Positions 12,496-51,587 are shown, counted from the first letter of the stretch. The stretch: 64,000 bases of DNA from Candidatus Kuenenia stuttgartensis (GCA_945897435.1 CAMDFJ010000002.1:6031-70030); one strand, 5' to 3'. Notes: generated by a model not told the origin, from the letters alone. Program-made: numbers and translations.

Positions 12496-14028
12496 TCAGG
12501 TGGCGAAGAAATCTCGGATCTTGCAGAAGATGTCCTGCGGTTCGGGCACGGGACGACCGGCCCCGGCCATCGCCTTGCTCCGTTCCGCAAGCCGGATGCG
12601 GAGCGCCGAGCCCATCTCCTCGATCAGTCCGGGCTCGGCCTCGATCAATTCCCTGAACGACTGCTTGCCCACTTTGAGCAGCCGGGATTCCGACTTCGTC
12701 GTCACCGTGGCCACGCGGGGGGCTCCCGTCATCAGCGACATCTCGCCGAAGTAATCGCCCGGCCCGAGCGAGCCGAGCGGCACGGGCGGTCCATCCCCAT
12801 CGCGTGCCGTCACCTCGACCTCGCCGCCCATGATGACGTACATGCTCTGGCCATCCTCCCCCTGGCGGATGATCTGCTCGCCGGCCGCGTAGATCCGCTC
12901 GTCGTTGTGCTCGGCGATCAGCCGCACCTGCTGCGGCCCGAGCGACGCAAGCAGTCCGATCGATTCGAGGCATCGCACCCGCCTTTCGATCACCGCATCG
13001 GCCGGCTCCGGGGGAGGAGGCGGTGGCAGCGGCGTGAGTCGAATCGCCTGAGTGGCGACCGGGATCTCGATGCCATTGCGGGCGAGGGCGTACCAGATCC
13101 TGTCGCGGGCCATGCCGTCGACGCGGTCGCGCTTGTCGAACTCGGTGGTGAACAGCCGCACCCAGTGCTCGACGCCGCGTTCCTTGAAGTCGTTGGTCAC
13201 GACCGACGGGGCGGGTTTTTCCAGGACTCCGAAACTGCCGCGGATCGCCTCGAGAATGATGGCCTGTACCCGCTGGGGTGACACGTCGTAGGGGGTGACC
13301 ACGTAGAGCGACCGCCGCGACCAGGGATCGGGCTTGGTGAAATTGCGGATCGAGGCCTGGGCAAGCTGGCCGTTTGGGATGATCACGTAGGCCTCGTCGA
13401 GCGTGATCACCTTCGTGGCCCGCCAGTTGATCTCGACGACACGGCCGATATGGGCCGGGTTTGCATCGTATTGAATCCAGTCTCCGATCTCGAACGGGTG
13501 TTCGGCGTGGATCGCCAGGCCGGCGAACACGTTGCCCAGGGTGTCCTTGAGGGCGAAGCCGAGGGCGGCCGTGATCAGGGCCGATCCGGTCAGGAGTTCT
13601 CCGGCGTTGATGCCGGCCTCCCAGAGCACGATCAGGAGCGCGGCCGCAAACGTCAGCCAGCGGAGCACGTCCAGAAATATCTTCGGCATCGGGCTGGCAA
13701 ACCGTTCCCAGCCGCTGACCGCGAACACCATCAGCAGCGACTGCAGGAGCGAGGCGATCACGAAGAATCGCAGGATGTAGTGGGCCGGCGGAGCGGCTTC
13801 GGCCGTGACGGGCATCACGAAGGACAGACCCAGCATCGCGAGGGCGATGAAGAGCAAGGCGATCGGCCCCCAGGCGAGCCAGCGGCGGCCCCGGGGCGAA
13901 CTGGCCAGAAAAAAGGCCAGGGCTACCAGGGCGAGCACGATCTCCCGGGAGGCACCGACGTCGGTCCAGCCGGTCAGCGACCAGAGGGTGCGATCGAGGA
14001 CGTCGTTGGGAACTGAACTCGGCTGCAT
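12496..14028 (-). CDS. MscS-family mechanosensitive channel with C-terminal cyclic-nucleotide-binding domain (bCNG-type)
   Basis: Several N-terminal TM helices. MscS core [23 protein letters not shown]...[30 protein letters not shown]-terminal CAP_ED-like domain [24 protein letters not shown]...[19 protein letters not shown]. Confidence 0.85.
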
Positions 14029-15802: not shown

Positions 15803-16669
15803 TCAGACTTTGCCCGTCTTGCGCCGAACCCCAAGCCGGAAGGCTGCGAGGGCGGCACCGGCCGCCACGACAGAGACAATTCCCGCCGGTTCGGGCACGG
15901 GCTGAATGGCAGCCGCCGTCTGGATCCCAAATTCCCGGCCTCCTGCATAGAACGGCACCCGCGGGACCGTGGCCAGATCGTAGGTGGGGGCCGGTTCGAG
16001 AAGCGAGACGCCGACAGGTTCACCTGAACGGGTGAACTGCACCTCCTCACCCAACAGTTCCTGCCCCACGAGCAGCGTGACCGTGCCGTATTGCTTGTTC
16101 CTGACAGACATCGCAGACAGGCCACCGAAGGGCTGGAACAGGTTTTGGTTCATCGTGTACTCGCCCGCTCGGGCCGAGGTGAAGAGCCGCATGCTGGCCG
16201 ACTTCCCGGGGAGGACGGCGTCGTTGAACTGAAGCTGGCAGACGAGGCTGCTCTCGTCCCAATTCCAGGCCGCGGCACCAGGCGTTTCCATCCACTCGAC
16301 GCCGGAGACGCGGGCATCCGAAGTCGAAAGGTCGAGATTGGCGCCGACGATGCTGTCGCTCTGGGAGAGGTTGGTGATCCGCAGGAAAGGATTGGCCTCA
16401 GCCACAAGCCGGTCGAAGAAGTTTTGTTGACCGCTGAGCGTGTTGACCACCGGATCGTTCCGGTTGTCGAGCCAGACGAGATTTGAGGCGATCTCGAGAC
16501 GAAACCGCTCCGCGTTGATCGTCTCGGCCATGGCCCGCGTCCCGGATGCGGCGTTCGCGACGACCATGGCGATACCGGCCACGATCAGGGCAAGACGGCG
16601 GAGAAGGGCGGGACGGAAACCCGAGGCACTCGTGCGACTGCAGGCTGACTGACGGGCGATCGTGTGCAT
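15803..16669 (-). CDS. PEP-CTERM sorting-domain protein
   Basis: The C-terminus IQPVPEPAGIVSVVAAGAALAAFRLGVRRKTGKV has the PEP motif, a TM helix and a basic tail. N-terminal signal-like segment. Confidence 0.8.
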   Translation of the reverse strand: MHTIARQSACSRTSASGFRPALLRRLALIVAGIAMVVANAASGTRAMAETINAERFRLEIASNLVWLDNRNDPVVNTLSGQQNFFDRLVAEANPFLRITNLSQSDSIVGANLDLSTSDARVSGVEWMETPGAAAWNWDESSLVCQLQFNDAVLPGKSASMRLFTSARAGEYTMNQNLFQPFGGLSAMSVRNKQYGTVTLLVGQELLGEEVQFTRSGEPVGVSLLEPAPTYDLATVPRVPFYAGGREFGIQTAAAIQPVPEPAGIVSVVAAGAALAAFRLGVRRKTGKV

Positions 16670-18498: not shown

Positions 18499-20562
<2,064 letters not shown>

Positions 20563-20629
20563 ACCCCGGAGATCTCGAGCCGTTCGTGCCGCCGTCACGG
20601 CCGGCCGGCCGCGGTCGCTCATTCAGCCG

Positions 20630-21583
20630 TCACTGCTGCTGGATTTCCATGTCGTCGGCATAGACCGGGGCCGTTCGCAGCACCGAATGGGCCGGCACGT
20701 CGAGCGGCGCCAACTGATCATGCCAGGAGAGCGACGGCAGCCGGTCGAGCGTGCGGGTGGCGACACGAACCTCGATCTTCTCGTCGCCGGCGCCCCGGTA
20801 GGTTCCCTTGTTTGGCGGCACGTCACTGAAGTCCCGGCCAACGGCTGTTTTCACGAAGTCCCGGTTCACGGGGCACCCATTCGTCGGGTCGAATCCGGTC
20901 CAGCCCACGTCCGGCAGCCAGACCTCGCACCAGGCGTGACTCTGCGACTCCTTGTTGGGGCGATGGATGTAGCCGCTCACGTAACGGGCCGGCACGCCGA
21001 AGGATCGGAGGACGGCGATCATCAGATGGGTGAAGTCCTGGCAGACGCCCTTGCCGTGCTGGAGCAGATGGTCGATCGGCGATGTGGCATCGGTCACGTC
21101 GCGGGCATACTCGAATCGGCTGCGGATGTGCTCGGCGACCTGACAGACCCAGATGCCGACCCGCACCCGTGGCGGCGGCCTGAGTTGGAGGAGCAGGGGT
21201 TCGAGCAGGGCCGAGCCGCGCACCGGACCGCGGAGCGGGAGATAGTCGACCGCCTCCAGCGGTAGGTTCCACGCATCTGCCGGCTCCTGCTCGGGGAAGA
21301 TCACCTGACTGGCGAGCGGCCCGACGCCCCCCTCGTCGGTCTCCACCACGCTGGCGGCGAGGATCCGGAGCATCTTCGGCGGGCGAAGCAGGTTGAAGTG
21401 GTGGACACGGTTTCCGAAGCCGTCGACGTAGCTGGCGATGCTGGCCGGACGTCCGAGGCTGATCTGGAACGAGTGGCAGCGCTGGCTGGCGTCGCTGATG
21501 GGCTCCATCCGCAGCTCGCAGAGCCACTCGCTGACCGGCTGCGAATATTCGATCGCCGTTTCGTGCTGTATTTCCAGAATCAT
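20630..21583 (-). CDS. transglutaminase-family protein (Bact_transglu_N + transglutaminase core)
   Basis: Track ORF trimmed to ATG at 21583 (MILEIQHETAIEYSQPVSEW). Cys-His-Asp catalytic context GVCQDFTHLMIAVLRSFGVPARYVSGY...SHAWCEVW...GFDPTNG. Confidence 0.85.
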   Translation of the reverse strand: MILEIQHETAIEYSQPVSEWLCELRMEPISDASQRCHSFQISLGRPASIASYVDGFGNRVHHFNLLRPPKMLRILAASVVETDEGGVGPLASQVIFPEQEPADAWNLPLEAVDYLPLRGPVRGSALLEPLLLQLRPPPRVRVGIWVCQVAEHIRSRFEYARDVTDATSPIDHLLQHGKGVCQDFTHLMIAVLRSFGVPARYVSGYIHRPNKESQSHAWCEVWLPDVGWTGFDPTNGCPVNRDFVKTAVGRDFSDVPPNKGTYRGAGDEKIEVRVATRTLDRLPSLSWHDQLAPLDVPAHSVLRTAPVYADDMEIQQQ

Positions 21584-21611
21584 TGCGGCTCCCGGGCGGT
21601 GTCTGAGTCGA

Positions 21612-22574
21612 TCATTGAAGGGAGTATTGCTGCTGGAGCAGGCTGCCTGTCCGCCAGCAGCGGAGGAGGGCGTCTCCGAGGAAGGCATGCAGTCGCTCGC
21701 CGTCAAGCGTGCCGCAGTCGAGGTAGACGAGATCCGACAGGAGCCGGCCGACCGTCTTCACCAGCTCGTCGTCGCGGCGGTCGGGCAGCCGGCCGCTGAT
21801 CTCGGTGAGTGACGCCATGATCCTGGCCAGGCAGAAGCGGACCGAATGGGGAAACTCGGGGTTGACGAGCAGGAATTCCACCACCCGCTCAGGTTCGACG
21901 CGGCTGATGTAGAGCCGCTGATAGGCCTCGTAGGCGGCACAATTCTTGAGCACCGCGCCCCATTGCAGATTGCTGATCGGCAGGTCGGCCGCCTCGCCCC
22001 GCTCCAGCAGGCCGAATTTCGAGTCGAGGATTCGGAGCACCTGCTCGGCCCGCTCCAGATAGCGACCGAGCTGGATGAAGTGCCAGCCCTCGTCGTGCGT
22101 CAGCGTCGCCTCGCAGACGCCGTGGAACAGCAGCACGCCGATCCTCGTCTCGTCGCAGAAGTCGTGGGGCGATTCGGCCACACGGGCCCTGAGGGCGGTG
22201 TCGGAGAGACGCCAATGGAGCTTGTTGAGCTCCCGCCACATGGCCGGACTGATCGAGCCGCGAATGCTGCGGGCGTTGTTGCGGGAGCGGTTGACGGAGG
22301 CGATCACGCTGCCGGCGTTTGTTGAATCGACCAGCAGCCAGCGTTGCACTGCAGCCACCGGATGCTCCGAATCCCTCAGCTGTGGCGGCGGCTGTCGCAG
22401 CCGGCTGAGCAGGGCATTCCACTCCAGCTCCACCGGGTTGGCAAGCACGCCGTGAAGGTCGAGATCGAGCTGGAACGTCACATCGACGGCCCGCGCGAGA
22501 TACTCGGCCCGCTCGAGATAGCGGCTCATCCAGAACATCGCGTCGGCGACCCTGCTCAACATGCGCTGCCTCAC
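21612..22574 (-). CDS. alpha-E domain-containing protein
   Basis: The N-terminus [28 protein letters not shown] and a second YLERAEQ repeat are the hallmark ER motifs of the alpha-E family. Overlaps the upstream ATP-grasp gene by 4 nt. Confidence 0.85.
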
Positions 22575-24085
22575 ATCCTCTGGCTGTCGGCGAGGATCCA
22601 GGTGTCCTTGCTGCCGCCCCCCTGGGAACTGTTGACCACCAGACTGCCTTTCGGCAGCGCCACGCGGGTCAGCCCGCCGGGCGTGACGGTGATCCGCTCT
22701 CCGCAGAGCACGAAGGGACGGAGATCGACATGCCGGCCCTCGAGCCTGCCGTCGACGAAGGTGGGGTGGGTGGAGAGCTGGATCGTCGGCTGGGCGATGA
22801 AGTCACGTGGGCTGGCCTCGATCTGGGCCCGAAACTCCTCCCGCTGCTCGCGTGTCGACGCCGGGCCGATGAGCATCCCGTAGCCGCCCGATTCGTTGAC
22901 CCGCTTGACGACGAGTGATTCGAGATTGGCGAGCACGTGGCTGCGGTGGGATGGAACCTCCGGCCGGAACGTCTCGACGTTGTTGAGCAGCGGCTCCTGC
23001 TTGAGGTAGTAGCGGATCATGTCGGGCACGAACGGATAGACTCCCTTGTCGTCGGCGATTCCGGTGCCGATGCTGTTGGCCAGGGCCACCGTTCCTGCCC
23101 GGTAGGCGTTCACCAGCCCCGGCACGCCGAGGGCGCTGTCGGGCCGGAAGGTGAGCGGGTCGAGGAAGTCGTCGTCGATCCGACGGTAGATGACATCGAC
23201 CTTCTGCAGCCCGCGGGTGGTTCGCATGAAGACACGGTTGCCGTCGACCAGCAGGTCGCGACCCTCGACGAGTTCGATGCCCATCCTCTGGGCGAGGAAG
23301 CTGTGCTCGAAGTAGGCGGAGTTGTACATCCCCGGGCTGAGCAGCACGGCGGTCGGCTGCGATGCCGACTCGGGGGCGATGTACTGCAGCACGTCGAGCA
23401 ATGCGGCCGGGTAGTCGTCATTTGGAAGGACGTCGTAGTCGTTGAACAGCGAGGGAAAGACCCGCTTGATGACCTGACGATTCTGCAGCATGTAGCTCAC
23501 CCCGGAGGGGGTGCGGGCGTTGTCCTCGAGCACCAGATATTCGCCGTCGGCGGCCCGAATCAGGTCGGTGCCGCAGACGTGCACGTAGATCCGCCGGGGC
23601 ACGTTCACGCCGACGAACTCGCGTCGAAAAAAGCCGCCCTGGAGCACGAGCCTGGCAGGCACGACGCCGTCACGGAGGATGTGCTGCTCGTGGTAGACAT
23701 CCCAGAGGAACAGATTGATCGCACTGATCCGCTGGGTGAGCCCGACCTCGATCTGCCGCCACTCTGCCGCCGGAATGATCCGCGGCACGGGATCCATCGG
23801 CCAGACCCGCTCGATTCCCTCCTCGGCCCGGTAGACCGTGAAGCCGACGCCGTCCTGCCGCATCGAGAGGTCCGTCATCGCCTTGCCACGGCGAAAGTCC
23901 TCCGGGGTTGCCTGCCGGACACGGTCGTAGAGCGGCTGGTAGTGAGGCCGCGGACAACCATCCCGACCGACCATCTCGTCGTAGGCTGCACCCAGTTCGT
24001 ACTCCGCGAGCAGATGCTCAGCCGGGCCCGACGCCGCTCGATCGTGGTTCATGAGGACCGCCGTCCGTGTTCCAATTCGAACCAC
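22571..24085 (-). CDS. circularly permuted type-2 ATP-grasp protein
   Basis: [31 protein letters not shown] and [20 protein letters not shown] are characteristic of the CP_ATPgrasp_2 family. First gene of a three-gene minus-strand operon. The start is uncertain (24085 or ATG at 24052). Confidence 0.9.
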
Positions 24086-24291
24086 TCACGTCCCGCATCA
24101 CTCGGACAACATTGCCGACAAACTGCGCAGTGGATGCCCCGCCTCAGGGCACGCCCCTCAGACCGTTGAACGCTCTCAGGCCTTTTTTCCTCGGCGGCCG
24201 GGCTGAACCCTATACTCTGCTCGAATCGTCGGGAACGCGCTGCACCATACCAGCAACTCCCGCGCCACAGTCTCAAAGCCTCGAGGAATGC

Positions 24292-25080
24292 ATGACGTAT
24301 TGCGTTGGAATCCGGACCCACGAAGGACTCGTGATGGCGTCCGATTCACGGACCAACTCTGGCATCGATCAGGTCGAGATCTGCAGGAAAATGCATAATT
24401 TCGTGATTCCGGGCGACCGGATGGTCACGATCCTCTCGAGCGGCAGCCTTTCCCTCACCCAATCCGTGATGACGCGGCTGGAACAGGAGTTTCACGCCGA
24501 CGAAGGGATCGTCAAGGCTGCGACATTCTACGACGCCGTGCGTTGTGTCGGCCGGCACGTCCGAGAGGTGTCGGCACTCGACCGCGAATACATGGAGCGT
24601 GACAAAGTCGCCTTTTCGGTCAATCTGCTCGTGGGCGGACAGGTTCGCGGCGAGGCCCCGCAACTCTATCTGATCTACGCCCAGGGCAATCCGCTCCGCT
24701 GCACGCGACTCTCGCCCTTCCTGCAGATCGGCGAGGCCAAGTATGGCAGGCCGATCCTCGATCGAGGTATCCGCTTTGGCGTGACCACGCTCGATCAGGC
24801 GGTGAAATATGCGATCATCTCGATCGATTCCACGATGCGGTCGAACGTCGCCGTCGGACCTCCGATCGACCTCCTCGTCTACGCCAACGACGACCTCGCC
24901 GTCACCCGCTACCGCCGGCTCGATGCCACGGATTCAGACCTGGTCGAGGTCCGATCGAGCTGGGAACGGGAACTGCGGGCCGCAATCGGAAAACTGCCGC
25001 AGATCGACGTTCCCTCGCTCCCAGCGGACAGACAGGCGACGGTCGCCCACACCCGCGGGCAGAACGACCTCGCCGGCTGA
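24292..25080 (+). CDS. proteasome-type Ntn-hydrolase, Anbu-like (peptidase T1 family)
   Basis: Track ORF 24067..25080 trimmed to ATG at 24292. MTYCVGIRTHEGLVMASDSRTN places Thr directly after Met, the Ntn nucleophile position. About 260 aa. Divergent from the ATP-grasp/alpha-E/transglutaminase operon. Confidence 0.8.
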   Translation: MTYCVGIRTHEGLVMASDSRTNSGIDQVEICRKMHNFVIPGDRMVTILSSGSLSLTQSVMTRLEQEFHADEGIVKAATFYDAVRCVGRHVREVSALDREYMERDKVAFSVNLLVGGQVRGEAPQLYLIYAQGNPLRCTRLSPFLQIGEAKYGRPILDRGIRFGVTTLDQAVKYAIISIDSTMRSNVAVGPPIDLLVYANDDLAVTRYRRLDATDSDLVEVRSSWERELRAAIGKLPQIDVPSLPADRQATVAHTRGQNDLAG

Positions 25081-25089
25081 CGAGGTTTG

Positions 25090-25338
25090 TCAGGCAGCCT
25101 TCCGCAGCGTGTCGAGGGAGCGGCCGAGTCTGCGACGGCCGCCGTTCGCCGCGGTCGATTCGATCACCGCCGTCTCCTTGGGCTCCACGTGAACCGTCAG
25201 TCGCTCGCGGAGCGACTGGGCCAGGGCCGGTCCGAGGTCCTCCTCACGGGTCCGCGTTCCGACGTCCTCGACCGCGTCCGCCAGACCGAGCACCACCGCC
25301 TGCCGAACCCCTTCCCTCAGCCAATGAAAGAAACTCAT
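25090..25338 (-). CDS. hypothetical small protein
   Basis: In-frame ATG at 25338 inside track ORF 25090..25932. MSFFHWLREGVRQAVVLGLADAVEDVG... is 82 aa with GC-rich third positions. Downstream of and co-oriented with the FHA-PP2C gene. No recognised domain. Confidence 0.45.
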   Translation of the reverse strand: MSFFHWLREGVRQAVVLGLADAVEDVGTRTREEDLGPALAQSLRERLTVHVEPKETAVIESTAANGGRRRLGRSLDTLRKAA

Positions 25339-25481
25339 CGCACGTTCTCCCAAGATGGTCCAAGATCTTCCGTCTGCCCGGCAGCCGCATCGACCCGGCC
25401 GCTCAGGAAGAGGTATCGGTCCTCCCGGCTGCCGGCGTGCAGCGTTGCACGACAGAGGACAGGGCCCGGCCTCTGGGCTGA

Positions 25482-27182
25482 CTATGCCGACGGCGATCCT
25501 TTGGCCGACCGGCCGACACAGACAAGGCACATGTCGTCGCTGCGCATCTGCCCCGCCGCATGCTTTTCCACATCCCCCAGAATCCGCCGTCCGGTCTCCT
25601 CGGCATTCTTTGCCGGTCCCGCCAGAACGCGGGCGAGCCGCCCGAGCCCATAGGTTTTCTGCTCGTGATCCATCGCCTCGCTGATGCCGTCGGTGAAGAG
25701 GGCGATGCTCTCTCCGGGGGCGATATCGACGTCGATCGCGGCATAGGCCTGATCTGGCTCGACGCCCAGCGGCAGGCCCGCCTCCTCCATGCCGAGTGGT
25801 CGCACGCCGCCGGCGGCATCGCGAAGCATCACGGGGAGGTGACCGGCGTTCACGATCGTGAACCGGTGCATCCGCGGATCGAGCACGGCCACGACGAGAG
25901 TCGCAAAACGGTCGTCCCAGCCGCCACGGCAAAAACTGTTGTTGATCCGCGCAACGGCCTCGGCAACGTTCGGCTCCATCGCAAGGCAGTAGCGGACGTC
26001 GGCGGAAAGCGTCGCCATGACAAGCGCAGCCGAGACGCCCTTGCCCGAAACATCTGCCAGCACGATCGCCATCCGCCCGTCGGGCAGGGGGACATAGCCG
26101 AAGAAATCGCCGCCGATCTGCTGGGCCGGCTCGTAAAAATCGAACACCTCGTAGCCCTCGATCCGCGGCGGCCGCGACGGGAGCAGTCCCTGCTGAACGC
26201 GATGGGCGAGTTCGAGATCCCGCTTCAACTGCTCCTGACCGAGCCGTTCGTCATAGACGAGAGCCTGACCGATCGACTGGGCTGCCTGACCGGCGATTCC
26301 GGCGAGCACGGCCAGATCCTCCTTGCGGAAGTCCCGACGGACATCGCTGGAATCGAGCTGCAGCACTCCGATCACCTCCCCTCCAGCCCCCACCACGGGA
26401 ACGCACATCACCGAACGGATGCGGCAGTCGACCACGCTCTGGTTGGCGCTGAAACGGCTGTCGGCTGACACATCAGCCGAGAGGATGGCACGGCGGCTGC
26501 GAACCACCCCGTCCATCAGCGAGAGACTCAGCCTCAGCGGCCCCGGCTCAGGCTGCCCCTTGAGCTTTCTGGCCCGGAGCACGAGCCGCTTCGAGGTCGG
26601 GTCGACCAGCAGCACGAACCCCCTGTCGGCCTGGGGAAAAATGTCGAACATTCCATCGAGCAGTCGTGGCAGCACCTCGTCGAGCGACAGCGATCCGCCG
26701 ATGGCCCGATTGAGCCCGAGGATCGCCCGCAGCCGTGCCGAGACATCGGGGCCACTCGCTTCGTCGAGCGTGTGATGCGGAAGCTCGACCTGGGAAATGA
26801 TTTTTGAGCCGGAGGCGTCCGACTCCTCATAGTCCGGAAGAAAGCCGGTATCCGCACCGATCTCGACCCGATCCGCCGAGAGCGGCGTGTTGCTCCAGAA
26901 GACCAGCTTTTGGTCGCAGATCAGCACCTCGTCGCCTTCGAACAGCACCCGCTTGCCGATCAGCTGCTTGCCGTTGACGAACGTGCCGTTTCGGCTGCGG
27001 AGATCCTCGATCACCGTCTCGCTTCCCTGCCGGGTCACGACCGCATGCTGACGGCTGACGGCGGACACGTCGAGGACGATCTCGCAGGCCGGATGCCGGC
27101 CGATCACCGTCCGATCCTTGACGATCCTGTGCCGCTCCCCCTTGTGCGGTCCGGTCTGTAATTCGAGCGATCGATGAGGCAC
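25482..27182 (-). CDS. FHA - GAF - PP2C/SpoIIE-type serine phosphatase
   Basis: N-terminal FHA (VIGRHPACEIVLDVSAVSRQHAVV...LRSRNGTFVNG), a central GAF-like region, and a C-terminal PPM/SpoIIE region (GGDFFGYVPLPDGRMAIVLADVSGKGVSAAL...TDGISEA...DDMCLV). Confidence 0.85.
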   Translation of the reverse strand: MPHRSLELQTGPHKGERHRIVKDRTVIGRHPACEIVLDVSAVSRQHAVVTRQGSETVIEDLRSRNGTFVNGKQLIGKRVLFEGDEVLICDQKLVFWSNTPLSADRVEIGADTGFLPDYEESDASGSKIISQVELPHHTLDEASGPDVSARLRAILGLNRAIGGSLSLDEVLPRLLDGMFDIFPQADRGFVLLVDPTSKRLVLRARKLKGQPEPGPLRLSLSLMDGVVRSRRAILSADVSADSRFSANQSVVDCRIRSVMCVPVVGAGGEVIGVLQLDSSDVRRDFRKEDLAVLAGIAGQAAQSIGQALVYDERLGQEQLKRDLELAHRVQQGLLPSRPPRIEGYEVFDFYEPAQQIGGDFFGYVPLPDGRMAIVLADVSGKGVSAALVMATLSADVRYCLAMEPNVAEAVARINNSFCRGGWDDRFATLVVAVLDPRMHRFTIVNAGHLPVMLRDAAGGVRPLGMEEAGLPLGVEPDQAYAAIDVDIAPGESIALFTDGISEAMDHEQKTYGLGRLARVLAGPAKNAEETGRRILGDVEKHAAGQMRSDDMCLVCVGRSAKGSPSA

Positions 27183-27421
27183 GAAATCCTCGGAAGAGCA
27201 GGCCAGGCTCGGGGGCCACCGAGACTGGAGAACGAAACACCGGAATTGCCTTGCAGCCGTTCTGCAGGTACGCTCCGAAACCGACCTTCTGCAGCATACC
27301 CGCTCCAGAAGATTGCTTGCGACGCGGGCAGCAGGCGGCTCTGTCGCAGGAACGCGGCAGACGTCCGGCCGGCATCGCTTCGCAGGCCCTCGGCTTCGAA
27401 GGTTCGCGACGGAAGTCCCTT

Positions 27422-27492
27422 TGGGGAATGGTGTAACGGTAGCACGACTGGCTCTGAACCAGTTAGTCTAGGTTCGAATCCTAGTTCCCCAG
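27422..27492 (+). tRNA. tRNA-Gln (anticodon CUG)
   Basis: TGGGGAA-TG-GTGT-AACGGTA-GCAC-G-ACTGG-CTCTGAA-CCAGT-TAGT-CTAGG-TTCGAAT-CCTAG-TTCCCCA-G. The U1:A72 pair and G73 are typical of bacterial tRNA-Gln. Confidence 0.95.
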
Positions 27493-27516
27493 TTTTTTCC
27501 TAGTTCCCCAGTTTTT
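27480..27516 (+). repeat. tandem duplication of the tRNA-Gln 3' end
   Basis: CCTAGTTCCCCAGTTTTT occurs at 27480-27497 (the last 13 nt of the tRNA plus a T-run) and again at 27499-27516. Confidence 0.7.
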
Positions 27517-27517
27517 A

Positions 27518-27605
27518 ACCTCACGCGCCGGTGGGCTTGCCGGGACATTGCCGGCGAGATGGTCTGTCCGGCTTTGACCTCACCCGCCGGTGGGCTTGCC
27601 GGGAC
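27518..27605 (+). repeat. pair of ~29-bp direct repeats upstream of the receiver-cyclase gene
   Basis: AACCTCACGCGCCGGTGGGCTTGCCGGGAC at 27518-27546 and ACCTCACCCGCCGGTGGGCTTGCCGGGAC at 27577-27605, 59 bp apart. The second copy ends 13 nt before the ATG at 27619. Confidence 0.7.
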
Positions 27606-27618
27606 CCATCTCCTCCCC

Positions 27619-28716
27619 ATGCATGAGGCTGTATCGATCGATCCTCCGCCTCACAGGGTGCTTCTCGTCGACGATCAGCCGATGATCGGCGAGGCTGTCC
27701 GGCGGATGCTGGCCGACGAACGGGATATCAGCTTCGAGTTCTGCGGCGAGGCCGAACAATCGATCGCCGTGGCCTCCGTGTTCGGCCCCAGCGTGATCCT
27801 GCAGGACCTGGTGATGCCGGGCATCAATGGCCTCGACATGGTCCGCCGCTTCCGGGCGATGCCGGCCACCTCCCAGGTTCCAATCATCGTGCTTTCAGGC
27901 CGTGAGGAGGCTGTCGTCAAGGCCCAACTGCTCGACGCCGGCGCCAACGACTACCTGGTGAAACTCCCCGATCAGATCGAATTGATCGCCCGGATTCGGG
28001 TCCACTCCGACGCCTATCGGCGGATGCTGGAACGCGACGCTGCCTTCGCCGCCCTGGAAAAGTCGCTGGCAGACCTCGAACGCGAGAGGCAGAAGTCGGA
28101 ACGACTGCTGCTCAACATCCTCCCGAAGACGATCGCCGACCGCCTCAAGGACGGCGACGGCTCGATCGCCGAAAGCTTCGAACGCGTCACCGTCCTGTTC
28201 GCCGATCTCTGCGGTTTCACCGAGTTTTCCCAGCATGTCGAGGCCCGTCAGGTCGTCGAGATGCTCGACGAAGTCTTTTCCTCGTTCGACCACCTCGCCC
28301 AGGCTCACGGTGTCGAGAAGATCAAGACGATCGGCGACGCCTACATGGCCGTGGCCGGCCTGCCCGTGCCCCGCGACGATCACGCCCAGGCCGTCGCCGC
28401 CATGGCCCTGGGGATGCTCGAGTCGTTTCGCGGCGTGATGCAGAGCCGCGGCCTCTCGATGGAGGTGCGGATCGGGATCCATTCGGGGCCCGTGGCGGCC
28501 GGCGTGATCGGCCGCCACAAGTTTTCCTACGACCTCTGGGGAGACACGGTGAACCTCGCCAGCCGGATGGAGTCGCATGGCGAACCGTCGCGGATCCACG
28601 TCTCTCAGGTGACCCGTGGCCTTCTCGAGCCGTCGTTCGTCTTCGCCGATCGCGGTGAGATCACGATCAAGGGGAAGGGGACGATGCAAACGTCGTTTCT
28701 GCTCGGCCGCGGCTGA
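27619..28716 (+). CDS. response-regulator receiver fused to class III adenylate cyclase
   Basis: Track ORF trimmed to ATG at 27619. Receiver: RVLLVDDQPMIGEAV...ILQDLVMPGINGLDM...LSGREE...GANDYLVK. Cyclase: VTVLFADLCGFTEF, KIKTIGDAYMAVAGLP, YDLWGDTVNLASRMES. The Lys and Asp at the purine-specifying positions suggest ATP. Confidence 0.85.
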   Translation: MHEAVSIDPPPHRVLLVDDQPMIGEAVRRMLADERDISFEFCGEAEQSIAVASVFGPSVILQDLVMPGINGLDMVRRFRAMPATSQVPIIVLSGREEAVVKAQLLDAGANDYLVKLPDQIELIARIRVHSDAYRRMLERDAAFAALEKSLADLERERQKSERLLLNILPKTIADRLKDGDGSIAESFERVTVLFADLCGFTEFSQHVEARQVVEMLDEVFSSFDHLAQAHGVEKIKTIGDAYMAVAGLPVPRDDHAQAVAAMALGMLESFRGVMQSRGLSMEVRIGIHSGPVAAGVIGRHKFSYDLWGDTVNLASRMESHGEPSRIHVSQVTRGLLEPSFVFADRGEITIKGKGTMQTSFLLGRG

Positions 28717-28775
28717 CGCCATTCAACAGCCGCCGCAGCTTGTTCCTTCCTGACTCAGACCCTCAAACCAGAGAT

Positions 28776-28856
28776 CAGGCCCGGACGACAGGGCAGGAAC
28801 CAGCGACCGGAGATCGCCGAGGAACATTCGGCAGGATGCCGAGATTTTCGATGAAC
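28776..28856. repeat. third copy of the composite hairpin element (H3-H2-H1), abutting the corA stop codon
   Basis: Gapless 81-nt hand alignment with 4725-4805. About 51 of the 57 stop-proximal nt are identical, and about 66 of 81 overall. Plus strand: CAGGCCCGGACGACAGGGCAGG AA CCAGCGACCGGAGATCGCCGAG GAACATTCGGCAGGATGCCGAGATTTTCG ATGAAC, followed directly by the corA stop at 28857. Confidence 0.75.
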
Positions 28857-30011
28857 TCAGTGCCAACGTTTGAGCCAGCCCCTGCGCCAGAAAAACACCA
28901 CCATCCCCGAGACGGTCAGCAGCATGATGCCGACGGCGACGATCGCGCCGTAGCGATAGGTGAGCAGGGGCATGTTCCAGGGAGAACTCGTGTCGAAGTT
29001 CATCCCGTAGTATCCGGTGATGAACGTCAGCGGCATGAAGATCGTGGCGATGACGGTGAGGAGTTTCATCACGTCATTCATCCGGTTGTTGAGGCTGGCC
29101 AGGTAGATGTCCCTCAGGTCGCTGCCGATCTCCCGATAGCTCTCCATCAGGTCGAGCAGTTCCATGGTGTGGTCGTAGGAGTCGCGGAAGTGGGCCCGGG
29201 CATGGTCGCCGACGAGAGGGGTGGGTTCCCTGCCGAGGGCGTGGAGCAGGTCCCGGGTCGGCCAGAGCGCCCGCCGCAGCGTCATCAGGTCGTTTCGCAC
29301 ATCGTGGATTCCGACCAGCGAGGTCCTCGAAGGACGATCGAGGGCCTCCTCCTCGAGTGATTCGAGCCGGTCGCCGAACCGCTCCAGCACCGGGAAATAT
29401 CCGTCGATCAGCACGTCCAGCAGGAAGGCGCAGAGGGCGTCACAGCCCTCCCGGCCGATGTGGGTGCGGCCATGGCGAATCCGGTCGCGGACGAGGTCGA
29501 AGGGATCGGGGGCGGACTGTTCCCGGAATGTGATCAGATAGCGGTCGCCGAGGAAGATGCCTACGGGATCGGTGACGATCGCATCCCCGTCGAACCGCAC
29601 GGTGCGGGCCGCCACCAGCACCTGATGGCCGAACACCTCCACCTTCGGCCGCTCATCCGGCGTGACGGCGTCCTCGAGGGCGAGTTCTTCGATCTCGAAG
29701 ACGTCGCCGATCAGCCTGTTGGTGGCCAGATCCTCGAGCCCCTCGATGTCGATCCAGACGACCGGCCACTTCTCTCTGGCGACCGTCAACTGCTCGGGAC
29801 GGATGATGGTGGTCTCCTCGACCTGCGTCCCGTCGCAGCAGAGCATCCGCAGGATGGCGGGACGCTCGAGGGCGGACTCTTCCCCGTCGTCATTGCCGCT
29901 CAGCGTCATCAGGGGCGTTGCCGCCGACGGGGCGGACGATCCATCGACTGGTGGATTTTTTGGATAGGCGTGACGATGGCGGCGACGGCGACGCTGTTTC
30001 CGATGTGACAT
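28857..30011 (-). CDS. corA: magnesium/cobalt transporter CorA
   Basis: The C-terminal two TM helices carry FMPLTFITGYYGMNF (the YGMNF signature). The N-terminal soluble domain is of CorA size. The start is uncertain because the first ~30 residues are very basic. Confidence 0.85.
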   Translation of the reverse strand: MSHRKQRRRRRHRHAYPKNPPVDGSSAPSAATPLMTLSGNDDGEESALERPAILRMLCCDGTQVEETTIIRPEQLTVAREKWPVVWIDIEGLEDLATNRLIGDVFEIEELALEDAVTPDERPKVEVFGHQVLVAARTVRFDGDAIVTDPVGIFLGDRYLITFREQSAPDPFDLVRDRIRHGRTHIGREGCDALCAFLLDVLIDGYFPVLERFGDRLESLEEEALDRPSRTSLVGIHDVRNDLMTLRRALWPTRDLLHALGREPTPLVGDHARAHFRDSYDHTMELLDLMESYREIGSDLRDIYLASLNNRMNDVMKLLTVIATIFMPLTFITGYYGMNFDTSSPWNMPLLTYRYGAIVAVGIMLLTVSGMVVFFWRRGWLKRWH

Positions 30012-46054: not shown

Positions 46055-46608
46055 GACAGCCTCGTTTGGGAGCCATGGCCCGCGTCCCAGTCCACCAGCC
46101 AGGCCGCGAGACCGGCAACGAGTTCCTCGGGGGCCGCGTCTGCGGCGTCGATGCAGACGTCGGCACATTCTCGATAGAGCGGATCTCGTAGCAGGAGAGC
46201 CGGCTCGACCTCTGCCAGCGGATCGTCGCCGGCCAGAGCGGGCCGCCGGTCGCGGGTCGTGGGGTCGGCAGCCAGCCGGCCGCGAATCACCGCCGCCGGG
46301 GCCTTCAGCCAGACAACCGGCCGCCCCAGGGTCTTCAGCAACTGCCTGTTGCCGGCATCGAGCACAGCCCCGCCACCCGTGGCGATGACACCGTGAAAAT
46401 CCCGCAGGAGTTCCCCGAGCACTGCGGACTCCTCCGCGCGAAATGCCGCCTCACCCCGATCCCGTACGAGCGCCGCGATCGTGCGGCCGACTCGCTCCTC
46501 GAGCACCAGGTCGGCATCCCGCCAATCGCAGCCGAGAAGGTCGGCCAGACCCCTAGCGAGCGTCGACTTGCCGGTGCCGCGATACCCGATCAGCGTGAGT
46601 TTCGGCAT
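46051..46608 (-). CDS. aroK: shikimate kinase
   Basis: LIGYRGTGKSTLARGLA (P-loop), DADLVLEERVGRTIA, ...IATGGG... Confidence 0.9.
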   Translation of the reverse strand: MPKLTLIGYRGTGKSTLARGLADLLGCDWRDADLVLEERVGRTIAALVRDRGEAAFRAEESAVLGELLRDFHGVIATGGGAVLDAGNRQLLKTLGRPVVWLKAPAAVIRGRLAADPTTRDRRPALAGDDPLAEVEPALLLRDPLYRECADVCIDAADAAPEELVAGLAAWLVDWDAGHGSQTRLS

Positions 46609-46659
46609 GGCAGATCCCGTTCGGACTTTGGCAGGGAGAGGCTTGGATGCGACCCGCGG

Positions 46660-48162
46660 TCAGCCGGGTTCCTTGGCCGAGGCAGTGGCCCGCTTGAGGG
46701 CCTCCCGCATCACCTGCGGGGAAGGGTCGTTTCCTTGCCAGATGCGGAACTGGATCGTGGCCTGCCTGACGAACATCTCCACGCCCGTCACTGTTCGACA
46801 GCCGACAGTTCTCGCCTCCTTGATCAGAAGCGTGTTCTCAGGATTGTACACCGTGTCGAAGACCACCATGTAGGGCCGCAGATGCTCTCGATCGAACGGT
46901 GTCTCATCGACATTCGGATGCATGCCCACCGGAGTGGCGTTGACGACGCAGTCGTAGGGCATCCGGTGGCGGGCCGCCCAGTCAACCGCCTTGCAGCCGA
47001 CGTCGGATGCGATCCTGCGGGCCCTGTCGATCGTCCGCGCGGCCACGGTCACATCGACGCCACGCGTCCGGAGGCCGAAGGCCACGGCCCGGGCGGCTCC
47101 GCCGGCGCCGAGCACGATCGCCGACTTGACCCCGAGTCCGTCCGGCGTCTGCGGAGCGTCCTGTTCCCTGAGCGCCGCCGCCAGGCTTTCGACTGCGGCG
47201 GCTGCATCGGTGTTGTATGCGGCTGTCTGACCGTCGGGCAGGAATTGGAGCGTGTTCGCGGCGCCGATCGCCTTCACGAACTGGTCCTGCTGGGTCGCAT
47301 GCCCGAGCACCGACTCCTTGTGGGGAATGGTCACACTCAGGCCGGACAGCGGCCAGCGGGCGGCCGTGGAGAGAAACTCGTCGATCTGCTCGGCGGGCAC
47401 GCGAAACGGCAGGTAGACCGCATCGATACCGGCATCGTGCAGGGCGGCGTTGTGGACGGCCGGGCTGAGACTGTGGGCCACCGGATCGGCCACCACGCCG
47501 TAGATTCTCGTCGCCGGCGTGATCGAGTCGTAGCGGTAGACATCTCGCATCTGCCGCCAGCCGATCTGTCCGGGGGCGAGTACACGGTCGTCGTGAAAGG
47601 TGGCGAAGGTGAACGGACAGCCGAAACTGCCACCAAGGACCCGGGTCGGCAGTCCGATGTCGCCCATGCAGATCCCGACCGTGGGAATCCTGCTCGCCCG
47701 GACCATCTCCAGCATCCGCAGGCTGTCGTTCGGGTGATTCGCCATCGTGGCGATCTTGACGATGTCGGCGTCGAGCCCGGCCAGCCTGCGGTGCAGGGAG
47801 GCCAGATCTGGCGGGGTCTTGCGGAAGTCGTGGTGGCTGACGATCCGCTTCGTGGTGCCGTATCGCGGCACCTGCATCGCGATATCGTCCTCGAGGTCGA
47901 TGAAGTCGGCGGCTTCGACGATCGCCGTTCGGAGAACGAGCAGCCGCTCCTCCTCCGAACGCTCCCAGCGGCCCCCATCGGCGGCCCGCCGGCAGGTGAC
48001 GATCGCAGGGCAGGGCCGTTCCGCGAGCAGCCGCTTCACCTGTACGGCTCCCTGGATGTAATCGAGGCGGAGCTCGACGAGCCCGATCCCCTGTTCCGCC
48101 AGATGCTTGTGCTCGGCGATGACGTGCCTGTGCCGGCCCCGTCCGATACTGACGCAGATCAT
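46660..48162 (-). CDS. aroDE: bifunctional 3-dehydroquinate dehydratase (type I) / shikimate dehydrogenase
   Basis: The N-terminal AroD half has MICVSIGRGRH...LVELRLDY...HHDF...KIATMA. The AroE half has YGVVADPVAHSLSPAVHNAA...NTL...VLGAGGAARAV...NATPVGM. A single 500-aa ORF. Confidence 0.9.
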   Translation of the reverse strand: MICVSIGRGRHRHVIAEHKHLAEQGIGLVELRLDYIQGAVQVKRLLAERPCPAIVTCRRAADGGRWERSEEERLLVLRTAIVEAADFIDLEDDIAMQVPRYGTTKRIVSHHDFRKTPPDLASLHRRLAGLDADIVKIATMANHPNDSLRMLEMVRASRIPTVGICMGDIGLPTRVLGGSFGCPFTFATFHDDRVLAPGQIGWRQMRDVYRYDSITPATRIYGVVADPVAHSLSPAVHNAALHDAGIDAVYLPFRVPAEQIDEFLSTAARWPLSGLSVTIPHKESVLGHATQQDQFVKAIGAANTLQFLPDGQTAAYNTDAAAAVESLAAALREQDAPQTPDGLGVKSAIVLGAGGAARAVAFGLRTRGVDVTVAARTIDRARRIASDVGCKAVDWAARHRMPYDCVVNATPVGMHPNVDETPFDREHLRPYMVVFDTVYNPENTLLIKEARTVGCRTVTGVEMFVRQATIQFRIWQGNDPSPQVMREALKRATASAKEPG

Positions 48163-48207
48163 GTGGTGGCTTTCGGGTGCTGGTGGGATCTTTGGCCGGG
48201 ACGCCTG

Positions 48208-49974
48208 TCAGGTCCGACGAAACTGTCTGTCGAGTTCCTGCCGCGAGAATGTCAGCGACGTCGGCCGGCCGTGCGGGCAGTGGTGGGAGTCCCTCACCCT
48301 GCGCCGATCGCGGACCAGGGCGTCGACCTCTCCCTGCGAGAGCCGATCACCCGCTTTGATGGCCGCCTTGCAGGCCATTCCATGGAGCACCTCGTCGACG
48401 AGCATACCCGGCCCGGCGGCGTCGGCCGCCGCCGCAAGCCGGTCGATCACCTCCCGCACGAGAATTGCGGCCGAAGCGGCACCCGCGAGCACGGGTTTCG
48501 AGGTCACGATCACGGTCGTGCCGCCAAAGGGCTCCACCCGCATGCCGGCCTGGGAGAGCGCATCGCCGTGCTCCTGGACGATCTCCAGTTCAGCAGCTGA
48601 CAGCTCCAGTCGCTCGGGGATCAGAAGCGGCTGCACCTCGAGAGATCCGGCCGCGACCGCGGCCTTGAGTCCTTCGTAGAGCACCCGCTCGTGGAGCGCA
48701 TGCTGATCAATGACCTCGATCCCTTCGGTGCTCTCGACGACGATGTACCGGTCGTGCATCTGCACGGCCATCTCCCCGGTCGCCTCCTGCGGCTCCCAGG
48801 GAGGTCTGACGGTGGGGCTGCCGGCCTCGGTCTTTGCCGAACGATCCGGCGGGTCAGGCTGGATTTTCCAGCCGCCCGACCAGCCGGCCGCTGAACCCGG
48901 AGAAGGGAGTCGACCGGCAGCGGAATCGGAGGGAGCGACACTCCATGGCTGCTCGACCGCGGGTGGCAGCAGGGCTGCCCGCATGTCGCGGGCCAGAAAC
49001 GCGGACCGCAGTGCCGACAACACGATCCTGTAGAGTCGCGACGGCTCTCGAAAACGGACCTCCATCTTGGCCGGATGGACATTCACGTCGACCGCGTCTG
49101 GGGGCAGATTGAATTCCAGAAACACGATCGGCTGCCGGCCGGAAAGGAGCAGGCCGCGATAGGCCTCCTGCACGGCATGCAGGATCGGTCGGTCGCGGAA
49201 GGGCCGTCCGGACACGAACAGGTGCTGCAGCCGGGTGCTCGCCATGTCGTCATCGGGCCGGCCCACGAGACCGCCGACGGTGATCTCGCCGTCGCTGGCG
49301 TCGACTGCGAGCAGCCGGTCGGCCAGCTGTCGGCCATAGAGCCCGGCAATTCTGGCTCGCCAGTCGTCGGCTGCCGGCAGGTCGTGAACCAGGCGGCCGT
49401 TATGGGTGAGCGTCATCGCCACATCAGGGTGGGCAAGAGCGGTTCGGACGAAGGCCTCCGAGGCGTGCGACCATTCGGTCGATGCGGCCCTGAGAAAGGC
49501 CCGCCGCGCCGGCACATGGCCGAACAGCTGGTGCACCTCGACCGTGGTACCGACCGCGCATCCCGCCGGCGCGACCGCCCCCACACGTCCACCGTCCACC
49601 TCGATCGACGCCCCGGCGGCGGCCGCAGCCGTCCTCGAGCGGATCAGGAGCCGCGACACCTCTCCGATCGACGCCAACGCCTCCCCCCGAAAACCGAGGG
49701 TCGTGATCCGCTCGAGATCGTCGGCGGTGCGGAGCTTGCTGGTGGCGTGGGGAGAGACGGCCAGCGGAAGATCCTCGGCCTCGATCCCACCACCGTCGTC
49801 GACGATGCGGACGAGGGCGACGCCACCCTGTTCGAGCGACAGATCGATCCTGCTGGGCTTCGCGTCGAGCGCATTCTCGAGCAGCTCCTTGACGACGCTG
49901 GCCGGACGCTCGACCACCTCGCCGGCGGCGATCCGATTGACGACCGAAATTGGCAGTTGGTGGATGCGTCCCAT
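48208..49974 (-). CDS. mutL: DNA mismatch repair protein MutL
   Basis: Track ORF trimmed to ATG at 49974. IHQLPISVVNRIAAGEVVERPASVVKELLENALDA, GFRGEALASI, and C-terminal ...HGRPT.... Confidence 0.9.
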   Translation of the reverse strand: MGRIHQLPISVVNRIAAGEVVERPASVVKELLENALDAKPSRIDLSLEQGGVALVRIVDDGGGIEAEDLPLAVSPHATSKLRTADDLERITTLGFRGEALASIGEVSRLLIRSRTAAAAAGASIEVDGGRVGAVAPAGCAVGTTVEVHQLFGHVPARRAFLRAASTEWSHASEAFVRTALAHPDVAMTLTHNGRLVHDLPAADDWRARIAGLYGRQLADRLLAVDASDGEITVGGLVGRPDDDMASTRLQHLFVSGRPFRDRPILHAVQEAYRGLLLSGRQPIVFLEFNLPPDAVDVNVHPAKMEVRFREPSRLYRIVLSALRSAFLARDMRAALLPPAVEQPWSVAPSDSAAGRLPSPGSAAGWSGGWKIQPDPPDRSAKTEAGSPTVRPPWEPQEATGEMAVQMHDRYIVVESTEGIEVIDQHALHERVLYEGLKAAVAAGSLEVQPLLIPERLELSAAELEIVQEHGDALSQAGMRVEPFGGTTVIVTSKPVLAGAASAAILVREVIDRLAAAADAAGPGMLVDEVLHGMACKAAIKAGDRLSQGEVDALVRDRRRVRDSHHCPHGRPTSLTFSRQELDRQFRRT

Positions 49975-50073: not shown

Positions 50074-51573
50074 CTAACTGAGCTGAAACTCCTTGATCTT
50101 CCGATACAGGGTTCGCTCGCCGATGCCGAGCAGTTCGGCGGCCTGTTCCCTGTTTCCACCGGTGAGCTTCAGGGTTTCGCCGATGAACAATCGCTCGACC
50201 TCCTCCAGGGGGCGGCCCACGAGCGCCGCCAGACCGCCCTGCATGTCGGCTGCCGGCAGGGGCGTCAACGGGGCGACGACCGGTTCGATTTCCAGCGGCA
50301 GATCGTCGACGTCGAGCATCTCGTCGCAGTCGACCACCACCATGCTCTCGATCACGTTTCGCAGTTGCCGCACATTGCCTGGCCAGTCGAAGGCGACGAG
50401 TTTCAGCCGGGCGGGCAGCGCCATGCCCTTGATCGTCTTGCCATGCCGTCGGGAAAACTGCTTCACGAAGTGGTCGATCAGCAGGGGGATGTCGGCCGCC
50501 CTTTCCTTGAGCGTCGGAATGGCGATCGTGACAACCTTCAGGCGGTGGTAGAGGTCGCTGCGGAATCCACCGGCCGCGATCGCCTCCTCGAGGTTGCGAT
50601 TCGTCGCCGAGAGAATCCGGACGTTGACGCGGACCGGCGTGTTCGAACCGACACGGGTGATTTCGCCCGATTCAAGCACCCGCAGGAGCTTGATCTGGGT
50701 CGCCAACGGCATGTCGCCGACCTCGTCGAGAAACAGCGTCCCGCCGTTGGCGTATTCGAATTTTCCGATGCGATCGCTCGAGGCGTCGGTGAACGCCCCG
50801 CGGACGTGGCCGAAGAGTTCACTTTCGAGGATGTTCTCACTCAGTGCGGCGCAGTTGAGGGCGACGAACGGCCGGCTCTTCCGCGGGCTGTTCTGATGGA
50901 TCGCCTGGGCGACGAGTTCCTTGCCGGTGCCGGTCTCCCCCTGAATCAGGACGGTGGCGTCGGTCGGCGCGATCCGCTTGAGACGTTCGATGAGCGACAG
51001 CATCTGCGGACTCGATCCGACGACACCCTCGAAGCCAAACTTCTCATCGAGTCGACGGTTGAGCTCAACGTTCTGCCGCCGCAGCCTGAGCCCTTCGGAG
51101 GCCTTCTCGACCGCCGCCCGAAGGTGCCCGAGATCGAGCGGTTTCTGCAGATAGGTGTAGGCTCCCTGCTGCATCGCCGCCACCGCCGAGGGCACCGTGC
51201 CGTGGCCGGTGACGACGATCACGTCCGTCTCTGGAGAGGCCTTCTTGGCACGGGCGAGGATTTCGAGGCCGCCGATGTCGTTCATCATCAGGTCGGTGAC
51301 CACGATGTCGAACGTGTCCTGCTCGATCTTGCGGGCCCCCTCTGCGCCGCTGCCGGCGACCACGCACTGATACCCAAGCCGTCCCAGCCCCTCGCCCATG
51401 GTGCGGGCGTGCACGATGTCGTTGTCAACAACGAGCACCCGCACGAGCCCCTGCGAGCCGGACTGGGCTGCGGGGGGCGGTTCGACTGGGCTCGGCGACC
51501 CGGATTCTCGTTGCGGCATGCCACCGATGGTACGAATCACCGCGGCACGCCGTCCAGTTCCTCGGAGGACCAT
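50074..51573 (-). CDS. sigma-54-dependent response regulator (NtrC family: receiver + AAA+ + Fis-type HTH)
   Basis: Receiver VLVVDNDIV...[21 protein letters not shown]+ region [47 protein letters not shown]-terminal [24 protein letters not shown]. Alternative start at ATG 51519. Confidence 0.9.
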
Positions 51574-51587
51574 CGCCCCTGAGGGGA

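Follow-up and report, generated by a model that had tools for sequence, protein, structure and literature searches.

Four protein families – a circularly permuted ATP-grasp amidoligase (COG2308), its all-helical ligase partner Alpha-E (COG2307), a transglutaminase-like (papain-fold) Cys-His-Asp enzyme, and Anbu, a proteasome-like Ntn hydrolase – make up a known and widespread gene cluster. Their association was described in 2008-2009 (Valas and Bourne, PMC3235984; Iyer et al., via PMC3495828, PMC5666114, and PMC6376114), and structures of Anbu followed in 2017-2018. The first three families have been joined in a tag-ligase/tag-peptidase model, in which the ligase adds peptide tags and the transglutaminase-like (TGL) peptidase removes them (PMC3495828). 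Here we analyze a copy of the cluster at positions 20630-25080 of a 64,000-nt stretch of DNA filed under Candidatus Kuenenia stuttgartensis (GCA_945897435.1, CAMDFJ010000002.1:6031-70030) – hereafter, the window. A preliminary description of this stretch had noted that comparative genomics linked the four families and predicted a peptide-ligation or tagging and processing system, which matches the literature cited above. It had also stated that substrate and function are experimentally unresolved. Our search of the accessible literature bears this out: it found no study assigning a function (and none after 2021), no functional study of PA1730-PA1733, and no newer paper on Anbu function.

Anbu assembles into a dodecameric open ring and not into a closed barrel of the 20S type, and the Thr1 of Pa-Anbu binds proteasome inhibitors (PMC5666114). 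The Y. bercovieri ATP-grasp protein frees phosphate from ATP (PMC6376114). On the regulatory side, the B. cenocepacia cluster is NtrC/sigma-54-dependent (PMC5491218), the P. putida cluster is the most strongly induced under nitrogen limitation, with its four genes responding together (PMC3235984), and a Bradyrhizobium ATP-grasp gene carries an RpoN site (PMC13207237). Valas and Bourne observed that Anbu at times lies outside the operon yet within the same predicted regulon (PMC3235984).

We found that all four genes are intact and side by side in the window and conclude that the locus is almost certainly a Pirellulales-type planctomycete copy of the Anbu gene cluster. Three of the genes form a compact operon on the minus strand: ATP-grasp comes first (22571..24052), Alpha-E follows (21612..22562), and the transglutaminase-like gene is last (20630..21583), its 3' end convergent with uvrB. 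Anbu (24292..25080, plus strand) is a separate, divergent transcription unit, with a convergent FHA-GAF-PP2C gene downstream. The nearest genomic loci belong to Pirellulales/Planctomycetia metagenome-assembled genomes, with Anbu identities of ~76-82%, and metagenomes supplied 10 further relatives.

The preliminary description had made its reading depend on placing the plus-strand product in the proteasome beta/Anbu family, and PDB matches make this placement decisively. The open reading frame (ORF) at 24067..25080 matches Pfam Proteasome (E 5e-9). From ATG 24292 (MTYCVG, without a propeptide) the protein matches five crystallised Anbu proteins full-length, covering residues 1-240, at E 2.8e-67 to 3.3e-53 (5LOY at 2.8e-67, 5NYJ at 1.8e-55, 5NYF, 5LOX, and 5NYW); the next PDB match, a proteasome beta subunit, reaches only E 8.8e-3. 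Thr1 directly follows the initial Met, as had been described, and Thr1, Asp17, and Lys32 align column for column with the catalytic residues of the Anbu-1 structure (MTYCVGIR...ASDSRTN...CRKMH). Published definitions separate an amphiphilic Anbu-1 S1 pocket (T20, F30, T48, L52, S55) from a basic, Arg-rich Anbu-2 pocket (PMC5666114). By its predicted S1 pocket, T20-C30-S48-L52-T55 without Arg, Anbu here is of the Anbu-1 type. Fuchs et al. place planctomycetes under Anbu-2 (PMC5666114), and judged by pocket residues this clade is an Anbu-1-type exception to that listing.

Pfam and PDB searches confirmed the other three family assignments of the preliminary description as well. The ATP-grasp ORF (22571..24085, minus strand) matches CP_ATPgrasp_2 (PF14403) at E 3.6e-165 over the full model (1-374/374) and also CP_ATPgrasp_1 (PF04174) at E 8e-148. 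The protein is 53-60% identical to Anbu-linked orthologues in Proteobacteria and Acidobacteria, and a close relative in the PDB, 3N6X (E 7.6e-166, residues 23-489), comes from structural genomics and bears the label 'putative glutathionylspermidine synthase'. The transglutaminase-like ORF (20630..21706, minus strand) contains Bact_transglu_N (PF08379, E 3e-19) and Transglut_core (PF01841, E 9e-24), and its Cys (GVCQDF), His (SHAWCEV), and Asp (GFDPTN) align with those of PDB 3ISR (E 1.7e-13). The Alpha-E ORF (21612..22574, minus strand) matches PF04168 at E 7e-82. Its ER motif occurs twice, as YLERAE at residues 15-20 and 168-173, with E17/R18 and E170/R171 invariant across 40 homologues. A PDB sequence search returned no relative of Alpha-E, and a Foldseek comparison of its AlphaFold2 model (pLDDT 88, pTM 0.89, 14 helices) with solved structures returned nothing similar (best E 0.42, TM 0.29). 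As modelled, Alpha-E stays an orphan fold, and structure comparison yielded no mechanistic clue. In NCBIfam, three of the four proteins have no model and Anbu draws only sub-threshold archaeal-proteasome matches. A role in anti-phage defence found no support: at E <= 0.01, PADLOC models gave no match to any of the four proteins.

Choice of start codons changes two distances that had been reported for this locus. ATG 22562 gives Alpha-E a length of 316 aa, shared by more than 100 close homologues, and this codon has a GAGG Shine-Dalgarno-like motif upstream; for these reasons we favor it as the start. A 4-nt GTGA overlap between the first two genes, as previously given, needs Alpha-E to begin at GTG 22574, the start of its longest ORF. 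This is unlikely, and ATG 22562 instead leaves a gap of 8 nt after the ATP-grasp stop. The most likely ATP-grasp start is ATG 24052: a relative (locus L004) has the same GTGGTTCAT at this codon, and the two sequences diverge directly upstream. The previously reported 206-bp spacer between ATP-grasp and Anbu rests on the less likely GTG 24085, and ATG 24052 gives 239 bp. For the transglutaminase-like gene the most likely start is ATG 21583, not TTG 21706; its product begins MILEIQ, just where the Bact_transglu_N match begins, GGGAG lies upstream, and the Alpha-E stop is 28 nt away. With gaps of 8 nt and 28 nt, the minus-strand genes are still tightly packed, as their description as translationally close had implied.

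To place this arrangement among relatives, we positioned the four genes by tblastn in 160 fetched loci, 131 of them informative; the sample comprises the 80 best matches per collection, and its counts are not natural frequencies. The four genes are adjacent in 104 of the 131 informative loci, across at least five phyla and in four orientations. In 62 loci (mainly Proteobacteria) they are co-linear with the trio before Anbu, 27 (mainly Planctomycetes and Acidobacteriaceae) are divergent, and 12 (mainly cyanobacteria) are convergent. Another three are co-linear with Anbu first; one of these, from Abditibacteriaceae (L008, 187-4013), has Anbu, ATP-grasp, Alpha-E, and the transglutaminase-like gene in that order on the same strand. 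Anbu is alone within ±5 kb in the other 27 loci (mainly Verrucomicrobia and some cyanobacteria). Because adjacency is kept in 104 of 131 loci, in four orientations and several phyla, it has survived rearrangement; that the association outlasted four different rearrangements in several phyla is a good indication of a shared pathway.

The divergent layout was present in 15/15 informative planctomycete loci. Acidobacteriaceae loci, which have the next-closest Anbu (54-58% identity), are likewise divergent. Since the layout recurs in every informative planctomycete relative and in Acidobacteriaceae, it is a clade trait and not an oddity of a single genome. The preliminary description had called the divergent placement of Anbu worth noting; our synteny survey upholds the divergence, with the qualification that it is conserved across the clade. 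Every protein-level feature of the described cluster that could be tested is present here. The sole departure is from a single co-linear operon (ATP-grasp > Alpha-E > TGase > Anbu on one strand), as Anbu lies on the opposite strand, 239 bp away. Genes flanking the cluster vary among planctomycete relatives – some have the PP2C phosphatase gene and others lack it, and uvrB is found only in L018 and L085 – and the four-gene module is for this reason the conserved unit.

Other loci in the sample depart from the four-gene pattern in their own ways. Acidobacteriaceae loci (L009-L017, L096, L097, L099) carry an extra ~200-aa transglutaminase-like gene between ATP-grasp and the divergent Anbu, ~350-950 bp upstream of Anbu. 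An Armatimonadales locus (L019, 6943-8110) has only a short transglutaminase-like gene directly upstream of Anbu. Three burkholderial-type loci (L060, L063, L069) have a ~1.7 kb insert between ATP-grasp and Alpha-E, which elsewhere abut.

Alignment of the 239-bp intergenic region identified three blocks that are kept in 18/18 planctomycete loci, while their surroundings have diverged. Block C is a predicted sigma-54 (-24/-12) promoter, TGGCGCGGGAGTTGCT (24252..24267, minus strand), that points toward the ATP-grasp operon with a predicted start at ~24241. Its aligned form is GCAAnTnnCGCGCC on the plus strand, equivalent to TGGCGCGnnAnTTGC on the minus strand, with exact -24/-12 spacing. Within the window, no site is better than TGGCGCGGGAGTTGCT, and no other comes within one mismatch of TGGCAC-N5-TTGCW. 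The background was estimated from random samples of 360 nt drawn from the loci: sites with at most one mismatch occur in 0.7% and with at most two in 5%. In 18/18 planctomycete loci the GG/GC cores keep their sequence and spacing, and the distance from the site to the Anbu ATG hardly changes. A site with at most two mismatches lies upstream of ATP-grasp in all eight planctomycete-type loci scanned (window included), and a 0-1-mismatch site is found there in many co-linear proteobacterial loci. Sigma-54 sites in front of this gene are enriched in both groups. No such site was found upstream of ATP-grasp in the cyanobacterial or Acidobacteria loci scanned, and the scan found none facing Anbu.

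Block B (24191..24218, plus strand) is a sigma-70-like element facing Anbu, conserved in 18/18 loci and with a predicted start at ~24225. It is the putative Anbu promoter. Relatives read TTGACG-N16-TAGTCT; the window reads TCGGCG-N16-TACTCT, or TATACT at 24211-24216. A nine-base stretch, TAGTCTGCG (24213-24220 and the equivalent in 17 relatives), contains the generally rare CTAG and is almost invariant in relatives. This conservation goes beyond the needs of a -10 hexamer, and TAGTCTGCG may be a binding site besides, or instead of, a promoter element. A promoter scanner made no sigma-70 call in 20400-25500, and a terminator scan of the same span gave a single terminator-like match, inside the Anbu gene and below chance expectation.

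Block A consists of two tandem 17-bp dyads, TGC-N11-GCA (24113-24129 and 24135-24151), conserved in 18/18 loci with a centre-to-centre distance of exactly 22 bp. An enhancer-binding protein or another dimeric regulator may bind these dyads; alternatively, they may form leader-RNA hairpins. Markov resampling produces a dyad pair within 45 bp in 22% of cases; in the window alone the pair is not significant, and the evidence for it is its conservation. RNAalifold scored 18 leaders at -14 kcal/mol with no covariation term. One pair with GC/CG swaps, which may reflect one or two events, is insufficient to prefer RNA over a DNA operator, and an Rfam search of 20000-26000 at E <= 1 returned nothing.

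Spacer lengths between blocks scarcely vary (54-58 bp and 50-52 bp), and the exceptions are 10-13 bp longer. This excess is about one helical turn and suggests joint action by blocks set in phase along the DNA helix. The predicted sigma-54 promoter adjoins the Anbu ATG, so that leftward transcription has to cross block B and then block A on its way to the ATP-grasp ATG. The predicted starts (~24241 leftward, ~24225 rightward) face each other and overlap by ~6-17 nt; on a single template, one polymerase should therefore shut out the other. The preliminary description had proposed a shared control region. Conserved control blocks do occupy the intergenic region, but in place of a single shared unit they appear as two interdigitating promoters of different sigma types. 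Divergent Acidobacteriaceae loci have neither the sigma-54 site nor the dyads in their intergenic region, which makes the control region planctomycete-specific.

A potential regulator is encoded elsewhere in the window, where we identified an NtrB/NtrC-like two-component pair (50074-52352, minus strand): a HisKA/HATPase kinase (NtrB-like, 51588-52352) and an NtrC-like activator with receiver, Sigma54_activat (E 4e-72), and HTH_8 domains (50074-51573). The activator's sigma-54-contact loop is GAFTDA where GAFTGA is usual. This protein gives the organism at least one sigma-54 activator and is one candidate, among presumably several, for binding the dyads. The intergenic region fits the NtrC/sigma-54 control published for the cluster in Proteobacteria under nitrogen limitation and suggests that Anbu is here uncoupled from the sigma-54 promoter.

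These observations can be combined into an account of the cluster as a tagging and processing system, which, taken as a whole (cluster identity plus mechanism), we hold to be somewhat more probable than otherwise. An enhancer-binding protein would switch on the sigma-54 promoter beside the Anbu start codon and thereby drive the ligase operon; the trigger is probably nitrogen limitation, as in Proteobacteria, with the paired dyads as likely binding sites. ATP-grasp, with Alpha-E, would use ATP to activate a carboxylate as an acyl-phosphate and form an amide or isopeptide bond, so that proteins or peptides gain an amino acid or a short peptide. The transglutaminase-fold enzyme would hydrolyse or trim that bond. 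Anbu would be made from a sigma-70-like promoter of its own, whether or not the ligase is present, and would degrade or process the marked substrates via its N-terminal threonine.

Several points weigh against this account. Purified Anbu showed no peptidase activity on standard proteasome substrates, and stable complexes among the four proteins were not detected (PMC6376114); Fuchs et al. considered a peptide-synthesis role for Anbu less likely (PMC5666114). The system has no known substrate, tag, or product in any organism. Anbu lacks all three partners within 5 kb in 27 of the 131 informative loci. At the level of control, nitrogen regulation is extrapolated from Proteobacteria, and no rpoN gene lies within the 64-kb window. 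The -10 of the sigma-70-like element matches at three of six positions and the -35 in the window is degenerate. The dyads lie at ~+90 to +128, downstream of the predicted sigma-54 start – an unusual geometry and a mirror image of the usual one – and no conserved dyads were found upstream of the sigma-54 promoter.

A possible but doubtful alternative is that the cluster serves small-molecule nitrogen metabolism. ATP-grasp would then make, and the Cys-His-Asp enzyme hydrolyse, a metabolite amide conjugate (e.g., gamma-glutamyl or polyamine), a pair resembling glutathionylspermidine synthetase/amidase, while Anbu would be an amidase or supply amino acids by bulk proteolysis in nitrogen starvation. 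The NtrC regulon co-regulates the cluster with urease, nitrate reductase, and polyamine and amino-acid transporters (PMC5491218), Piasecka et al. bring up amidase activity on non-peptide substrates and a role in yielding ammonia (PMC6376114), and the cluster here contains no tag gene or small conserved ORF. The closest solved ligase structure, 3N6X, was deposited under a name that points the same way, but that name is a structural-genomics label and not the result of an assay. Known metabolite ligases lack an Alpha-E counterpart, and the multi-subunit open ring of Anbu, its proteasome-like S1 pockets, and its inhibitor binding favor polypeptide substrates (PMC5666114).

It is rather unlikely that Anbu is a stand-alone, ATP-independent protease whose adjacency to the trio is inherited gene order, with no shared pathway and separate regulation of the two units. 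The predicted promoters are indeed separate and of different sigma type, with no sigma-54 site for Anbu itself. The loci in which Anbu is alone within ±5 kb and the failure to detect physical interaction with the operon proteins (PMC6376114) fit this possibility, as does the occurrence of the trio without Anbu, e.g., in B. cenocepacia I35_5080-83 (PMC5491218). Yet the genes have stayed adjacent in several phyla despite at least four different rearrangements, the four P. putida genes are induced together (PMC3235984), and the three non-coding blocks, with spacing quantised in helical turns, are as expected of one integrated control region.

The intergenic region also bears on a further alternative. 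We consider it very improbable that the cluster is a pathway for ribosomally synthesized and post-translationally modified peptides, in which the long leader would code for a small precursor peptide, to be modified by ATP-grasp and processed by the two hydrolases: other ATP-grasp enzymes do cyclise ribosomal peptides, and the leader from the sigma-54 start to the ATP-grasp ATG is ~190 nt, but leader length varies (131-241 nt), its conservation is confined to short blocks that resemble DNA motifs and show no codon periodicity, the adjacent genes include no transporter or precursor gene, and a search of the intergenic region and leader for a precursor peptide found only non-conserved, GC-driven small ORFs, which largely excludes one.

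The tagging and processing account allows a more specific extension, which we put forward as tentative and doubtful. With the sigma-70-like start of Anbu inside the footprint of the sigma-54 promoter and the dyad pair serving both, one template could not initiate both units at once, and expression of ligase and protease would be reciprocal or sequential – the protease pre-made, the ligase switched on from a downstream enhancer. If true, this would be a natural downstream-enhancer, face-to-face promoter switch, and it would argue for tagging, not proteolysis, as the regulated step of the Anbu pathway.

What is new at this locus is local: an Anbu-1-type cluster in Planctomycetes, its clade-wide divergent layout, and a conserved region that puts the ligase module, and not Anbu, under a predicted sigma-54 promoter. 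Sigma-54 control of the ligase module would thus appear to extend past Proteobacteria, and Anbu, it seems, can sit under separate control. The conserved promoter and dyad blocks are concrete, mutable targets for studying how ligase and protease are coordinated. The locus does not answer the question of substrate and role, for which it is no more tractable than the proteobacterial loci under study.

Beyond the cluster, the genes downstream of Anbu in the window (25482-30011) encode an FHA-GAF-SpoIIE/PP2C phosphatase (minus strand), a response-regulator adenylate/guanylate cyclase (plus strand), and CorA (minus strand). The cyclase is also beside Anbu in six planctomycete relatives (L001, L004, L005, L018, L085, L091), and CorA is near Anbu in L001, L002, L004, L005, L018, L084-L086, L088, and L091; the phosphatase is gone from L002, L005, L086, L088, and L091. 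Elsewhere in the window, an MscS-type mechanosensitive channel is fused to a cyclic-nucleotide-binding domain (12496-14028, minus strand), in the same stretch as the response-regulator cyclase. Two long ORFs, of 735 aa (46393-48600, plus strand) and 288 aa (15803-16669, minus strand), have no Pfam match at E <= 0.001.

Several known systems resemble this locus in part. A pairing of an ATP-grasp enzyme with a papain-like Cys hydrolase that undoes the same bond is seen in glutathionylspermidine synthetase/amidase and in tubulin TTL ligases with TGL peptidases (PMC3495828); in those systems the substrates are known (glutathione/spermidine and tubulin tails) and there is no Alpha-E or Anbu component. 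The B. cenocepacia I35_5080-5083 cluster (DUF404/407, DUF403, and two transglutaminase-domain proteins) has the same trio core under NtrC/sigma-54 in nitrogen limitation, but as listed it includes no Anbu and has a second, large transglutaminase-domain protein (PMC5491218). The Acidobacteriaceae loci (L009-L017, L096-L099) share the divergent layout and have the closest Anbu outside Planctomycetes (54-58%), and differ in their extra ~200-aa transglutaminase-like gene and in having no sigma-54 site and no dyads.

Among more distant parallels, the analogy behind the tagging hypothesis is the Pup-proteasome system of Actinobacteria, in which an acyl-phosphate amide ligase, a tag-reversing hydrolase, and a Thr1 protease of the proteasome family are genomically linked. 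The likeness is this linkage of an ATP-dependent ligase, a hydrolase, and a Thr1 protease; the ligase there is glutamine-synthetase-like (PafA/Dop), whereas here it is an ATP-grasp enzyme. We looked for further elements of a Pup-like system and found no small tag gene in the cluster or leader and no adjacent AAA+ unfoldase gene. For the control region, a partial precedent is offered by the Caulobacter ftr enhancers, which in the divergent flaN/flbG units lie downstream of the transcription start. FlbD, a single enhancer-binding protein bound at ftr dyads, activates sigma-54 promoters and represses another promoter (PMC3930126). The genes concerned are unrelated, and any parallel would be limited to the layout of the control region.

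The proteobacterial Anbu operon (the P. aeruginosa PA1733 cluster, Y. bercovieri, and P. putida) differs in gene arrangement: there ATP-grasp, Alpha-E, the transglutaminase-like gene, and Anbu are co-linear, while here Anbu is separate, with its own sigma-70-like element and no sigma-54 site. The likeness extends to all four families, with ATP-grasp 53-57% and Anbu 42-49% identical, to the catalytic residues and the predicted Anbu-1-type S1 pocket, and to the predicted sigma-54 promoter upstream of ATP-grasp.

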